Sequence record: MH355584.1
DNA: 64,000 nt
From: Escherichia phage vB_EcoM_JB75
Direction: 5' to 3' (one strand)
Part shown: one piece after another, positions 19,341 through 24,691 of the stretch
Position numbering within the stretch: the first letter of the stretch is position 1
How the letters are laid out: each line of letters starts with the position of its first letter
The notes under the pieces: model-generated
What the model saw: only the letters and a program-made list of their open reading frames with translations
Told to the model about the DNA's origin: nothing
Database searches by the model: none
Position numbers and translations under genes: made by a program

Positions 19341-19868
19341 ATGAATGCTAAAGATATTTTCAACTTGGTAAACTACAATGATGGTAAATTTAAATCTGAA
19401 GCTCAAAGCAAGTTCTTTAATGATGTCTCAATCGGTGGTGAAATCACGGTTGATGGAGGACAAATTTACAAATCCCGTTGGAATTGGATCGTTATTATTG
19501 ATGAGATTGGTATTGTAGAAATTTACAAGAATACGAATAAAAATCGTACATTACACTGGTCTCGTGATACTAACGAACAGTACAAAAAGGATAAAGCATC
19601 TAAATTATCTCGTGTAACTCAAGAAGATATTGAGTTCATCAAGAAAGATATTTTGATGTATGATAACTTAATTGCTGAAGAGCAAGCTGTTATTGATAAA
19701 TTTGATGAGATTAAAGCTTCTCGTGAAATTCCTGATTTTATGAAAGAATCAGTAAATGAACGATACACTCTCATTTCAGAGCGTATTGAAACTTACAAAA
19801 AGCAAAGAGCTGAACGCCAGAATACTCTTCGGAAGTTTGAAGAACGGTTAAAGACGGTACTCGCATAA
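19341..19868 (+). CDS. Hypothetical protein (175 aa)
   Basis: ATG after RBS GGAGGAA; helical C-terminus. Confidence 0.55.
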   Translation: MNAKDIFNLVNYNDGKFKSEAQSKFFNDVSIGGEITVDGGQIYKSRWNWIVIIDEIGIVEIYKNTNKNRTLHWSRDTNEQYKKDKASKLSRVTQEDIEFIKKDILMYDNLIAEEQAVIDKFDEIKASREIPDFMKESVNERYTLISERIETYKKQRAERQNTLRKFEERLKTVLA

Positions 19869-20339: not shown

Positions 20340-21230
20340 ATGTCAGTAGTAATTAATAATGTCAATGCAGTAATTAAATCTTTAGTTAATAAAAAAATGA
20401 TGAATGAATGGACTGTACTTCGTCGTGGAGAGCCAGATAAATTTTTTCATAGATTTAACCCAACTTTGGATTTGAATGTTATTGACAGAGATGTTCATGC
20501 CAAAATTTTAGATAAATTTAAAGTTGATATTGGATTTGGATTAGAAAAACATTTACAGCGAACAAACGGGTCTGGAATGAGTTTATCTAATCGCATCATG
20601 AAAGCCCTTAATAAAATTGGAGCGTTGTCTCGTATTAACGCGAGTGAAATCCTTCGCAATTATAATAAAGGATATGACCTTTATGGTCGACTAATGCCGA
20701 AATTATCATTTGACCAAATGATTGCGGATTTGTGGGAAAATCAACGACGATTATTAGCATTAGGCGCTCGATTAGCTAAAGGTCTAGATAAACAAATGAT
20801 TTTTAAGACCAATAATACAGAAGACCTTAAATGCTTTAAATTTAGTACTCGTGGAGATGATTATTACATCAGAGCTCACTCTACAGATTATGTCAATATG
20901 GGGCATCATCTCTGTTTAGCTTTTGAAGTTTTAAAAGAAGCTGGAACATTAGAATATTCATCTGGTGCTAAATGTCCGATTGGTTCAAGTTGTATTTTAA
21001 TTTATCGCCCGGATGAATCCAGTTCATCTAAATTACCTACAAAACCTGTACCAGTTCGCAGTAATGAAAAACATTCTGAACAAATTGCTTATTTTAATAA
21101 GCAGATTGAAGAGCTAAATATTTCTATTCAGCAATATGATGATGAAATTTTCAGACTATCTGGATTGAGTAGTAAAGCTAAATCTGAGCGTGAAAAATTA
21201 ATTAAAATCGTTGATTTACTTAAATCTTAA
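20340..21230 (+). CDS. Coiled-coil-tailed paralog family member 1
   Basis: 296 aa; variable N-domain, K-P-x-P linker, ~45-aa C-terminal amphipathic helix. Confidence 0.6.
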   Translation: MSVVINNVNAVIKSLVNKKMMNEWTVLRRGEPDKFFHRFNPTLDLNVIDRDVHAKILDKFKVDIGFGLEKHLQRTNGSGMSLSNRIMKALNKIGALSRINASEILRNYNKGYDLYGRLMPKLSFDQMIADLWENQRRLLALGARLAKGLDKQMIFKTNNTEDLKCFKFSTRGDDYYIRAHSTDYVNMGHHLCLAFEVLKEAGTLEYSSGAKCPIGSSCILIYRPDESSSSKLPTKPVPVRSNEKHSEQIAYFNKQIEELNISIQQYDDEIFRLSGLSSKAKSEREKLIKIVDLLKS

Positions 21231-21238
21231 GGAACACC

Positions 21239-22267
21239 ATGAAAACTCGTTCTCAAATTGAAGATATGGTTCGTAATGCCAGCTATACTCGTGATGTTAT
21301 GACATTTTTGTGTGAAAATAATTTAGACCCTGATAAAGTTAATCGTGTTATTCATCACTTTAAGTATACGAATAGCAGTGAATGGGTGCGTAATTTTAGT
21401 AAAGCAGGGTATATTACACAAATGACTGCTCGTGAACAGCTCACCGATTTCTGTAAAACTATTGATTATAAAAATCCTTTGATTGTTCAAGGCGTTGGTC
21501 AAAGTAAGGTCGATTTATCATCTGGATTTTTCAATCCAAATCATTATCGAATTGAATGGAGATTTATTGCTCTGTTCCGTAGACAATTAAAGCAAATTTT
21601 GTCGACGGCTAGTCGATTAAAAGGTTCTGACATTAACTTAAAGAACCTGAAATTTGATGGTTATACTCTTCAGATGGAAGTAAGACCGTTAAAAGAAAAT
21701 AATAGAACTGCACGAATTAGCTTTAAGCCTAATACTAAAAATTCTCTTTCAATTTGTGAATGTCTTAAATCACAGCTGACAGAAGCATTTAAGTATATGG
21801 ATGTTGTTGCTGCTGTTCAATCTAAGATTTTACCTCGTTTTGAGCGAAATTGGGAACATACAACAACATATGAACTTGATATGATCGTTTCATTTAAATA
21901 TGAATTTTTGAGAAAGGATGAAATTGTTCAAGAGAAAAAGCAGGAAGTGCAAGATACCTTAAATTTAAATTTATCCAATTACTTATCAAACGATCCTAAA
22001 TGTTGGATGTACAGTTCAAGTAACATAGATGCATGTAAACTTAATAAAGTGAGTTTTCTTCCTACTGAAAATTCAAATTTTAAACCTGTAGAAAAATGGC
22101 ACGCTGATGCGATTGAAAAGTCTCTTAAGGCAGTAGATGATGAACTCGTTAAAGCGACCAATGAAATGCTAGAAGCTGAAAAGGCGTTAGAACAAGCTCA
22201 GTCAAGGGTTCAAAATCTGGCAAAGCAACGTTCTAAACTGAACAATGCACTAAATGCACTGAACTAG
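21239..22267 (+). CDS. Coiled-coil-tailed paralog family member 2
   Basis: 342 aa; same architecture, C-terminal helix ...LEAEKALEQAQSRVQNLAKQRSKLNNALNALN. Confidence 0.6.
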   Translation: MKTRSQIEDMVRNASYTRDVMTFLCENNLDPDKVNRVIHHFKYTNSSEWVRNFSKAGYITQMTAREQLTDFCKTIDYKNPLIVQGVGQSKVDLSSGFFNPNHYRIEWRFIALFRRQLKQILSTASRLKGSDINLKNLKFDGYTLQMEVRPLKENNRTARISFKPNTKNSLSICECLKSQLTEAFKYMDVVAAVQSKILPRFERNWEHTTTYELDMIVSFKYEFLRKDEIVQEKKQEVQDTLNLNLSNYLSNDPKCWMYSSSNIDACKLNKVSFLPTENSNFKPVEKWHADAIEKSLKAVDDELVKATNEMLEAEKALEQAQSRVQNLAKQRSKLNNALNALN

Positions 22268-22296
22268 TTTACTTTGCCACAAGGATGTGGTATAAT
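22267..22296 (+). promoter_or_regulatory. T4-type early promoter
   Basis: -35 GTTTAC, 18-bp spacer ending TGTGG, -10 TATAAT. Confidence 0.7.
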
Positions 22297-22324
22297 GTTT
22301 TTACTTTCTACTGAGGAGATTATT

Positions 22325-23326
22325 ATGACTCGTAACGAATATATCAAATCATTCAATAGCGTTATTGATGATAAAGCTATACCGATGTTTGGCCAAAATA
22401 GCGTTCTTTCTATTATCAATCAATGGCTCAATAGTGTTGATGCAAGTATTGTTTCTTCTACTAAATTTATTCATGAAATTCGTAAAATTTCTAGCCGTGT
22501 AGATAAAGATGTTATCAAGAAAACCTTTAAAGAGTCTCGTCTTCTTTCATATTTGGTTAATCGGGATATTCTTGGTAATTTTGGGAAAGAAATTAAACGA
22601 ACTAAAGATGTAGTAGGATACAATTGGTTCGGTGATGTTAATTCTTATCATCTTAATATTAAAGAAGACCCTGAGAATATTTTTACTCGTCGTTGGATCA
22701 GTAATTTCAGACTTTTTAAGAAACAAATTCTAAAATCAGCTTCTAAATTATGTTATGGCGATTATCGTCAAATTCATCCTTTGGCTTCTGATATGATTAT
22801 CATAAAAGAATATGAACTTGATAAAAATAAAGTATCTATTTTTGTGAATTATGGATTTTTTACACCAGAAACTAACCAAAAGAATATTAATAAATTTTTC
22901 TCAATTGCTAGCACTATAACTCGTCAATTAGAGACCGCATTACTTTGTATGGAAACAGTAGAAAATATTCATACATATCCTTTTAAGAATATATGCGGTT
23001 GGGAAGGATATAAACTCGTAATTAGCCTTCGTGAAGTGAAATGTGCTTATTCACCTACTGATAAAGAAATTTACCAACAAAAATGTGATGAAATTGTGAA
23101 TACTCCTAAAGAAGAAACTACCCTTGAGGAACTAATGGAATGTCTTGATGATTCACCTGAACCGATAGAAATTCGTCCAGAAGTTATTGCACTAGAAAAA
23201 GCTTATAAAGAAGTTCTAGAAATTTCTAATAAAGCGCAGAAAGAATATGAGCAGGCTAAAAGGATTTGGGAAGAATCTGTTAATCGTCTTGATCGTCTGG
23301 AACAAGCTTTACAGTTAATTAAGTAA
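22325..23326 (+). CDS. Coiled-coil-tailed paralog family member 3
   Basis: 333 aa; start at ATG after RBS GAGGAG downstream of promoter. Confidence 0.6.
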   Translation: MTRNEYIKSFNSVIDDKAIPMFGQNSVLSIINQWLNSVDASIVSSTKFIHEIRKISSRVDKDVIKKTFKESRLLSYLVNRDILGNFGKEIKRTKDVVGYNWFGDVNSYHLNIKEDPENIFTRRWISNFRLFKKQILKSASKLCYGDYRQIHPLASDMIIIKEYELDKNKVSIFVNYGFFTPETNQKNINKFFSIASTITRQLETALLCMETVENIHTYPFKNICGWEGYKLVISLREVKCAYSPTDKEIYQQKCDEIVNTPKEETTLEELMECLDDSPEPIEIRPEVIALEKAYKEVLEISNKAQKEYEQAKRIWEESVNRLDRLEQALQLIK

Positions 23327-23378
23327 TTTAAAGCCAAGGATGGCTCGGAGTATAAATCATTAACCAAGTGAGAAGAAC

Positions 23379-24305
23379 ATGAAAACTCGTAAACATTATA
23401 TTGATTATTTTGACAGTCTTATTACTAAACATCGTAATTATCAGATAGGACACAGAGCAGTAATCAATAATATTCTTCGTGATTTTTTAGACTATATTGG
23501 ATGGGAAAACCATATTTGTAAAGATACACAAAATGCGTATTCACATTCTCTTGGTTCTTTGCTCGAGTGGTTCAAACGTTCCCGATTACTATCTTCTGTG
23601 ATAGCTGTTAATAATGTTAAAAAATTTATGTATCCAAGCTACATTGAGACTAATGTATCAAATGCTAGTGTTGTTACATTTAATATTATTAACGACGTGA
23701 AAAGAACTTATTTAGAAGAATGGTTTTCTAAAGATAGTAAAGAAAAATTTGCTAGTGAATTTTCACACGAATTCAATAATAACGTGAATATGCTTTTTAA
23801 GCATTCTCGTAGACTGTTTTGTCATGGTGATAACCGTACTATTAATGTGAATGTAAAAGACTGGGTTACGGCTAAATTCACTCCATCGTCCCAGAATGGG
23901 CAATTTGAATTGTCAATTATCATTTGTGCTCCGCACGAGATATATAAAAATCTTCCGTATATGAAACCACGCGAAGCTAATAAACACAATGAAACTATTA
24001 GTTCTTTGGCTTATAATTTACGCGTGTTATTATCTGATATGGATGTAGTCAAATCCTTTGATGATAATACGAATTATGGTCTTTCGCTGTTTGAAACTAA
24101 ATTTGTTATTAAATTAAAGGACCCTAGTGAATTTAAACCTACCCCAAAATCCAATCATGGAAATGATACTATGAAAGAAGAACGCGAATATCTCAGTGCC
24201 CGTTTGATTGAAGTTGAAAAACAGATTGAAGAGCATACTAAAGTTCTTAAGGCTTTAACCGCCAAAGCAAATGGTTTACGTAATGCTATTGAGGTATTGA
24301 AATGA
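23379..24305 (+). CDS. Coiled-coil-tailed paralog family member 4
   Basis: 308 aa; begins MKTR like member 2; C-terminal helix. Confidence 0.6.
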   Translation: MKTRKHYIDYFDSLITKHRNYQIGHRAVINNILRDFLDYIGWENHICKDTQNAYSHSLGSLLEWFKRSRLLSSVIAVNNVKKFMYPSYIETNVSNASVVTFNIINDVKRTYLEEWFSKDSKEKFASEFSHEFNNNVNMLFKHSRRLFCHGDNRTINVNVKDWVTAKFTPSSQNGQFELSIIICAPHEIYKNLPYMKPREANKHNETISSLAYNLRVLLSDMDVVKSFDDNTNYGLSLFETKFVIKLKDPSEFKPTPKSNHGNDTMKEEREYLSARLIEVEKQIEEHTKVLKALTAKANGLRNAIEVLK

Positions 24306-24691
24306 AAAAGCGTTTATTAGAAGACATTGCAGCTTCAAGTAATTCCAGTTTAATTAAAATTATTATGGCTGGTGAGGAAGATGATATGGAAATGCGTGGA
24401 AAGATTCACGGCTGCGACGATTTAGATTTTAAACCTCCAGCATGGGATGCTATTATGGCTATGGTTGAACGACGTGAAAGAGCTTCTAAAAACGTTCCTA
24501 ATTGCCCTGAATGCGGTACTGAACAAGTTCAATTGATTAACTGGCGTAAACCAGAGCTTGAATATAAATGCCGTCAATGTAAACATAAATTCAGTAAGCA
24601 TGCTCCGGAAATGGTTAAATTGCCTGACTCTACTGAGTTCTTTAAAGAACTTGTGAGTGTTCAACCAATGCCTAATAATATTTTGGATTAA
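24302..24691 (+). CDS. Hypothetical zinc-ribbon protein
   Basis: CPECG...CRQC four-Cys motif. Confidence 0.55.

Follow-up and report, generated by a model that had tools for sequence, protein, structure and literature searches.

The window analysed here is a stretch of 64,000 nucleotides (nt) from Escherichia phage vB_EcoM_JB75 (MH355584.1), a genome segment of a T4-like phage of the genus Tequatrovirus, whose + strand corresponds to the early-gene strand of T4. It carries a tandem array of four open reading frames (ORFs) that are collinear with T4 nrdC.6, nrdC.5, nrdC.4, and nrdC.3 (Table 1), and it is the relatedness and the possible counter-defence role of these four genes that are considered in this work. 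Each ORF starts with ATG behind a GAGG/AGGA ribosome-binding site. The gene neighbours are those of T4 (AF158101), with nrdC.7-nrdC.11 upstream and nrdC.2, nrdC.1, nrdC, gene 49, and nrdD downstream. An earlier note on this DNA, made from the sequence alone, had given the positions, the sizes (296-342 aa), and the tandem arrangement of the ORFs exactly as they are found, and its match with T4 nrdC.3-nrdC.6 was correct, as order and neighbours are the same in T4. Over the 4.7 kb around the array, the window shares 99.7% identity with Escherichia phage Shinka, and some 490 further T4-type phages reach 90-99%.

Table 1. Features of the nrdC.6-nrdC.3 array, in positions of the window
Feature	Position	Strand	Remarks
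nrdC.6 orthologue	20340..21230	+	296 aa; PHROG 2257; PF26899 on close homologues; most divergent of the family
nrdC.5 orthologue	21239..22267	+	342 aa; DUF7235/PF23882
nrdC.4 orthologue	22325..23326	+	333 aa; PHROG 1435; PF26897 on relatives
nrdC.3 orthologue	23379..24305	+	308 aa; PHROG 1435; clear paralog of nrdC.4
nrdC.6 C-terminal heptad helix region	21072..21227	+	residues 245-296; two predicted helices, break at SGLSS
nrdC.5 C-terminal heptad helix	22097..22264	+	residues 287-342; eight heptads without interruption
nrdC.4 C-terminal heptad helix	23186..23323	+	residues 288-333; heptad register
nrdC.3 C-terminal heptad helix	24177..24302	+	residues 267-308; heptad register
T4-early-type promoter in the nrdC.5/nrdC.4 gap	22267..22296	+	GTTTAC-N17-TGGTATAAT; consensus match only
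Variable cassette within nrdC.3	23466..24268	+	DNA comparison with phage Ozark

The nrdC.5 ORF shares 93.3% identity with T4 NrdC.5 over 342 aa at the same locus and matches DUF7235 (PF23882) over all 307 model positions (E 5.6e-120; 400.9 bits, the gathering score being 30). It was the only one of the four to be recognised in the Pfam scan; nrdC.6, nrdC.4, and nrdC.3 stayed below the DUF7235 cut-off, and only the nrdC.3 tail gave a match (E 0.22). Full-length profile matches to PHROG 1435 were obtained for nrdC.4 (E 5.6e-168) and nrdC.3 (E 6.4e-101), and to PHROG 2257 for nrdC.6 (E 1.9e-151). The PF26897 label is a precomputed annotation on relatives of nrdC.4 and nrdC.3, the model being absent from the Pfam scan results of the window ORFs; likewise, homologues of nrdC.6 at 96-98% identity carry PF26899 as a precomputed annotation.

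Compared pairwise by BLASTP, the four proteins are hardly recognizable as relatives, the best pair being nrdC.4/nrdC.3 at E 0.002. Family alignments were built from the locus in Tequatro-, Mosig-, Dhaka-, and Gaprivervirus phages. When their profiles were compared with hhalign, nrdC.4 aligned to nrdC.3 with 97% probability (E 3.5e-11, 251 columns), and nrdC.5 aligned to the merged nrdC.3+4 profile with 94% probability (E 1.6e-7) over 228 collinear columns that run from an FKxSRLLS...F motif to the tail. The proposal of tandem paralogs with similarity beyond composition is thus borne out by profile alignment for nrdC.3, nrdC.4, and nrdC.5 and probably holds for the more distant nrdC.6 (see below), although pairwise BLASTP is nearly blind to it. 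In a 22-sequence alignment of the nrdC.3, nrdC.4, and nrdC.5 families, M1, T3, R4, F71, L334, and A337 are invariant and the V of MDVV (V190) is nearly so. Both motifs noticed earlier in the second and fourth ORFs, MKTR at the start and MDVV inside, are indeed present there and occupy homologous positions, because the columns into which they fall are aligned and conserved across the family. What homology can be detected is concentrated in the head and comprises two conserved pairs of helices together with a beta-beta-alpha-beta-beta unit that holds the MDVV position; the picture of unrelated variable heads on a common tail is therefore not upheld, as it is the heads that are homologous by profile-profile comparison. 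Judged by these alignments, nrdC.3, nrdC.4, and nrdC.5 are diverged copies of one protein that align along their whole length. Furthermore, PHROGs 2351, 1435, and 2257, or PF23882, PF26897, and PF26899, appear to represent one superfamily with a common architecture. No fifth member was found when all ORFs of the window were searched with hidden Markov models (HMMs). The neighbouring nrdC.8 (19344-19868, 175 aa) also has a long amphipathic C-terminal helix, yet profile comparison gave no homology to the four.

Structure models were available for two members. In the AlphaFold2 (AF2) model of nrdC.6, with a predicted local distance difference test score (pLDDT) of 76.9, helices up to residue 147 are followed by the beta-beta-alpha-beta-beta unit (167-222), a low-confidence linker (227-242), and helices at 246-272 and 278-295. 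The nrdC.5 model has helices up to residue 128, the beta-beta-alpha-beta-beta unit at 145-218, a long low-confidence linker (220-284), and a single helix at 286-341. The order of secondary-structure elements is identical in both, and the shared plan of the family is a variable N-terminal helical segment, two conserved helix pairs, beta-beta-alpha-beta-beta, a flexible linker containing prolines, and a heptad helix of 42-56 residues; the linker ahead of the tail helix is probably disordered.

Foldseek was run against predicted viral structures. Full-length matches of the nrdC.6 model were uncharacterised proteins of 300-370 aa from other T4-like phages, namely Pectobacterium phage PM2, Acinetobacter phages Acj9, Acj61, and fHyAci03, Enterobacter phage IME523, Klebsiella phage Mineola, and Serratia phage PS2, while the targets of the nrdC.5 model came from Erwinia phage Cronus, Mineola, and Yersinia phage fHe-Yen9-01. 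A 326-aa Mineola protein was matched by both models (E 1e-3 for nrdC.6 and 1.8e-6 for nrdC.5). Mineola_080 is the sole 326-aa ORF at the syntenic Mineola locus, where it adjoins an nrdC.2-like gene, and it aligns to the nrdC.3/4/5 profile with 96% probability (hhalign, E 1.2e-9, with the Klebsiella seed left out of the profile); the Foldseek target very probably belongs to the nrdC.3/4/5 group by its sequence. The adjacent Acj61 genes p120 and p121 (L020:40451-42471) lie between nrdC and nrdC.10. Their products gave no significant score when compared as single sequences with the profiles by hhalign, and are linked to the family by the Foldseek structure match only. No PDB chain matched the head structurally, and a solved or recognisable fold is lacking for the family.

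Each of the four proteins ends in the amphipathic C-terminal helix that had been noticed from the sequence, with a heptad register that beats shuffled sequences. Within one unbroken register, hydrophobic residues occupy 12 of 15 a/d positions in nrdC.6, 15 of 16 in nrdC.5, 11 of 13 in nrdC.4, and 10 of 12 in nrdC.3, and the observed periodicity score was reached by 4, 0, 54, and 2 of 5000 composition-preserving shuffles, respectively. The tail helices have a pLDDT of about 77-88 in the nrdC.6 and nrdC.5 models, and sequence matches in the PDB are limited to weak ones with trimeric coiled coils (E above 0.03). As for the K-P-x-P linker described in the earlier note, prolines are found in all four linkers; the exact motif occurs in nrdC.6 (KPVP) and nrdC.3 (KPTP) and is absent from nrdC.5 (KPVE) and nrdC.4 (SPEP/RPEV). 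The tail itself had been called constant. Since tail-only profiles of the paralogs were no more similar to each other than heptad-preserving column shuffles, this idea was dropped: the tail sequence differs from paralog to paralog, and what the tails have in common is the heptad pattern and a short L..A(L/I)..LK ending.

Among orthologues, on the other hand, the tail is the better conserved part. Tail versus head identities are 58-67% versus 28-45% for nrdC.6 across genera, 78-88% versus 54-57% for nrdC.3, 59-63% versus 44-49% for nrdC.4, and 27-45% versus 23-28% for nrdC.5. The proportion of nonsynonymous differences (pN) in the tail is roughly half of that in the head, and the proportion of synonymous differences (pS) is equal or higher in the tail and saturated in both. 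Because pS is saturated alike while pN is roughly halved, selection on the tail acts at the protein level rather than on DNA signals that overlap it. The heptad pattern and the paralog-specific, orthologue-conserved sequences lead us to infer that the tail of each paralog drives self-association. A side observation concerns the nrdC.6 tail in T4. At about 21111, the T4 record AF158101 has a 1-nt deletion (GAGCTAAATATT to GAGCT-GATATT), which shifts the reading frame so that the product is 275 aa long and the coiled-coil tail is lost. Since a second T4 annotation has an 891-bp gene, either the strains differ here or the record contains an old sequencing error.

The family is a very small one. 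When homologues were sought by word index with the superfamily alignment, few distant members came up; more informative was HMMER, which was run exhaustively on 1.84 billion cluster representatives and found 18 proteins at E <=1e-3. In the phage genome collection, matches came from T4-like phages that infect enterobacteria, and Acinetobacter phages have relatives by structure; the family is confined to T4-like phages (Straboviridae). There are four copies at the locus in Tequatrovirus, three in Gaprivervirus, Dhakavirus, and some Mosigvirus phages, two in others, two in Acj61, and one recognised copy in Jiaodavirus. Compared with phage Ozark, the DNA of the window is 92-100% identical over the region, but identity falls to 53-79% in the sharply bounded nrdC.3 block, and both ends of nrdC.3 (~30 codons at the start, ~12 at the stop) lie in comparison bins with 100% identity to Ozark. 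Among 657 phage records, nrdC.3 falls into two distinct (bimodal) allele classes. Gene 094 of Salmonella phage Manna (L012:5215-6252) joins nrdC.6 codons 1-~269 to the linker and tail of nrdC.4; the junction is a shared DEI (a 21-bp overlap), and nrdC.5 and the nrdC.4 head are deleted. The array is thus plastic, with exchange of the nrdC.3 cassette, copy numbers of 1-4, and natural fusions and deletions.

Further rearranged forms were seen in passing. In public assemblies, the middle of nrdC.5 is fused to the C-terminal half of nrdC.3 (P0056), and a 378-aa protein of Shigella phage Sf25 (P0073) is nrdC.6 with an internal tandem duplication of 83 aa. On an 803-bp metagenome contig (L019), an unrelated 479-bp 5' segment containing IYAF...LKIGDT stands in frame with ~55 codons from the end of nrdC.5, after which nrdC.4 begins; this may reflect an insertion or a chimera. 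The apparent head swap onto the nrdC.5 tail that this contig encodes (P0072) was given no weight, as it is possibly an assembly chimera and matches no phage genome.

Functional information comes from T4. It was shown that a T4 deletion mutant fails to plate on E. coli ECOR17 or on MG1655 carrying ECOR17 dsr1, and that plasmid-expressed T4 nrdC.5 restores plating of the deletion mutant on MG1655 with dsr1 (Srikant, Guegler & Laub 2022, eLife, PMC9391042). Dsr1 is a SIR2-domain NADase (PMC9391042), whose tetratricopeptide repeat (TPR) sensor is triggered by the phage major capsid protein and is common to Avs7 and to proteins with other effectors (2026 preprint, PMC12803255). The family had been regarded as uncharacterised, which does not apply to this member: T4 nrdC.5 overcomes Dsr1 genetically (PMC9391042). 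The role is carried over to the nrdC.5 copy in the window by 93% identity to the T4 allele, so that an anti-Dsr1 function is to be expected of it. Two other genes of the same T4-type block have also been linked to defence, with gp49.2 inhibiting OLD (PMC13096335) and nrdC.1 inhibiting Septu (bioRxiv 10.1101/2025.11.20.689424). According to the supplement of a T4 transposon mapping study, all four genes of the array were scored as non-essential on E. coli K-12. Our literature search returned no functional mention of nrdC.3, nrdC.4, or nrdC.6 and no paper relating the four genes, and a search on the Pfam and DUF names returned no papers.

We favour the reading that the array is a set of counter-defence proteins, consisting of four early-transcribed, dispensable paralogs, and assign it a probability of roughly 60%. 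As nrdC.5 disarms Dsr1 and belongs to the same family, the other three genes are good counter-defence candidates; homology, genomic context, dispensability, and arms-race-like variation lead us to infer that nrdC.3, nrdC.4, and nrdC.6 target other defences, and the members may plausibly differ in the targets they bind. The early-type promoter in the nrdC.5/nrdC.4 gap also speaks for this reading. The signatures of an arms race are a head that evolves faster than the tail, an nrdC.3 cassette with bimodal alleles, and a variable copy number. Mechanistically, each head would be made early in infection and would bind and block a different host immune sensor or a variant of one sensor. For nrdC.5, the target would be the SIR2 NADase Dsr1, whose TPR sensor would otherwise respond to the major capsid protein at a late stage of infection; by analogy with the phage protein DSAD1 and its target DSR2, and given the early timing, NrdC.5 may bind the Dsr1 sensor before the capsid protein appears. 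The paralog-specific tail would lead to self-association and hence to higher avidity for oligomeric defence proteins, and would keep the paralogs from mixing.

More tentatively, nrdC.3-nrdC.6 might be seen as a modular counter-defence platform, in which fast-evolving heads that are exchanged by recombination are tuned to capsid-sensing TPR sensors of the Dsr1/Avs7 type or to other sensors, and are carried by paralog-specific, homo-oligomerising coiled-coil tails. The head is considered exchangeable because of the bounded nrdC.3 cassette and the natural head/tail chimeras such as Manna gene 094. If this were true, a phage would bring up to four pre-emptive early blockers of the sensing of late proteins.

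Several points weigh against the array being a set of counter-defence proteins. The functional data are genetic and concern nrdC.5 alone, as the T4 allele and not the copy in the window, and the AF2 model of nrdC.5 is of low confidence (pLDDT 60.5). One comparison in the HIDEN-SEQ data available to us gave no significant fitness effect for the four genes. HMMER profiles of nrdC.3, nrdC.4, and nrdC.5 do not find nrdC.6, whose tie to the other three is drawn entirely from profile-profile and structural arguments. The conservation of the tail could reflect the binding of a partner instead of self-association. Finally, the heads are basic to neutral, which makes a role related to nucleic acids possible.

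The last point belongs to the rival explanation that survives best, although we consider it unlikely: only nrdC.5 would counter a defence, and the other paralogs would contribute to host takeover in some other accessory way, such as by binding nucleic acid or host proteins, so that the four are a family by descent and not by function. The net charge is 0 to +11 and the isoelectric point (pI) 6.9-9.4; for the heads the pI is 6.9-9.5, with basic values of 9.1-9.5 in nrdC.6, nrdC.5, and nrdC.3. Moreover, the paralogs have diverged to the limit of detection by sequence, and no phenotype is reported for nrdC.3, nrdC.4, or nrdC.6. The surrounding block, however, holds three genes with anti-defence roles (nrdC.5, gp49.2, and nrdC.1), all four members are dispensable for growth on K-12 in the transposon supplement cited above, and the cassette exchange in nrdC.3 together with the variation in copy number is typical of arms-race genes. 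A separate candidate, anti-defence action by DNA mimicry as in proteins of the Ocr/Arn type, was rejected because the net charges, and the basic charge of three heads, are at odds with a strongly acidic surface; this basic charge would be compatible with a role related to nucleic acids.

A further alternative, which we judge improbable, assigns the tail another task. Instead of mediating self-association, it would be a docking helix through which all heads attach to one partner, be it a host protein or a phage scaffold; this corresponds to the common scaffold suggested in the earlier note. It would fit with the purifying selection, which is stronger on the tail than on the head, and with the polar tail residues of the nrdC.6 family, which are nearly invariant too (IQQxDDEIxRLxGL), beyond what a generic coiled coil needs. 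Yet a single partner would need to recognise four sequences that are alike in heptad pattern only, and 6-8 heptad turns without interruption are typical of self-associating coiled coils.

It is likewise doubtful that nrdC.6 is no true paralog but a gene of separate origin whose layout became similar by convergence, which would reduce the family to three members here. Pairwise BLAST and HMMER leave nrdC.6 unlinked to the other three, PHROGs and Pfam hold it as a separate family, and with deeper profiles its hhalign probability is just 76% (E 2.2e-5) over 105 of ~300 columns. The score of 44.3, however, lies well above the controls (19-21 for reversed profiles, 13-19 for three unrelated neighbouring families, and at most 30.7 in 40 block-shuffles), and the aligned segments are the same two conserved helix pairs in the same order. 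In addition, the AF2 models of nrdC.6 and nrdC.5 have the full order of elements in common, and among the matches of the nrdC.6 model are full-length proteins encoded at the syntenic locus in further T4-like phages, one of them the Mineola protein that is very probably an nrdC.3/4/5 member. From profile and model comparison, nrdC.6 thus appears to be a more distant member of the nrdC.3-nrdC.6 family. Very improbable, lastly, is a purely compositional resemblance of AT-rich, Lys/Glu-rich helical proteins of similar size that are adjacent by chance: BLASTP E-values between the four proteins are mostly above 0.1, but for nrdC.3, nrdC.4, and nrdC.5 it is ruled out by hhalign scores and controls, the profile comparisons being collinear and highly significant, the neighbouring unrelated families staying at noise level, and the invariant columns holding over 22 sequences.

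Around the array, a few further features were recorded. A small hairpin (22275-22292) lies inside the T4-early-type promoter upstream of nrdC.4, and another small hairpin, followed by a TATAAAT motif resembling a late promoter, is found upstream of nrdC.3 (~23345-23358). At the position of nrdC.2 (24302-24691), the window has a 129-aa ORF with a zinc-ribbon-like CPEC...CRQC motif; T4 nrdC.2 is annotated with 104 aa, and Ozark has the long form. Many GenBank records of phages call every nrdC.x gene a thioredoxin, a label that appears to have spread from the neighbouring nrdC. The four proteins matched no thioredoxin or glutaredoxin family in Pfam, and neither AF2 model (nrdC.6, nrdC.5) resembles one.

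The array is not a new kind of system, and its genes have long been annotated. Measured against the databases and the literature that could be searched, the union of the four in one superfamily and the candidacy of the other three as counter-defence genes appear to be new. Phage counter-defence proteins have so far been found singly, and NrdC.5 with its anti-Dsr1 activity now stands within an array of four paralogs; T4, the best-studied phage, therefore offers three immediate and cheaply testable candidates. The pattern of head and tail conservation, together with the nrdC.3 cassette, also indicates the part of the protein that probably carries specificity. Moreover, three function-unassigned database families can be merged into one superfamily.

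In the databases, DUF7235 (PF23882), PF26897, and PF26899 and PHROGs 2351, 1435, and 2257 include all four proteins and their orthologues, but keep them as three separate families without assigned function, which are merged here; PHROGs joins nrdC.4 with nrdC.3 and splits off the other two. The relatives at the locus in other phages are uncharacterised proteins of 300-375 aa. Acj61p120/p121, Klebsiella phage KP179 gp156 (L021:5001-5975), and Mineola_080 (L022:7446-8426) likewise lie between nrdC and nrdC.10. Like the PM2 and Cronus proteins, which are Foldseek targets, they resemble the array proteins in size and match structurally over their full length. KP179 gp156 and Mineola_080 also keep the MDVV position and match by sequence. 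The copy number at the locus differs from that of the window, with one recognised copy in Jiaodavirus and two in Acj61. T4 NrdC.5 has its orthologue in the second gene of the array, at the same locus, 93% identical, and with a full-length DUF7235. The T4 study is a genetic test of nrdC.5 alone without a mechanism (PMC9391042), to which the window copy is likened by sequence. Like the array, the anti-OLD gp49.2 and the anti-Septu nrdC.1 are dispensable, lie in the early accessory block between nrdC.11 and gene 49, and occur in T4-like phages only; unlike it, they are small, single-copy, and unrelated in sequence, with neither a paralog array nor a coiled-coil tail. A functional parallel to NrdC.5 is DSAD1 of an SPbeta-group phage, an inhibitor of DSR2 (PMC10981675, PMC11087589); in both cases a phage protein acts against a defence-associated sirtuin NADase. 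The two differ in host, phage group, and target, and no relation in sequence or fold turned up, although none was specifically sought. DSAD1 reportedly binds the sensor region of DSR2 directly, and the same model may hold for NrdC.5.

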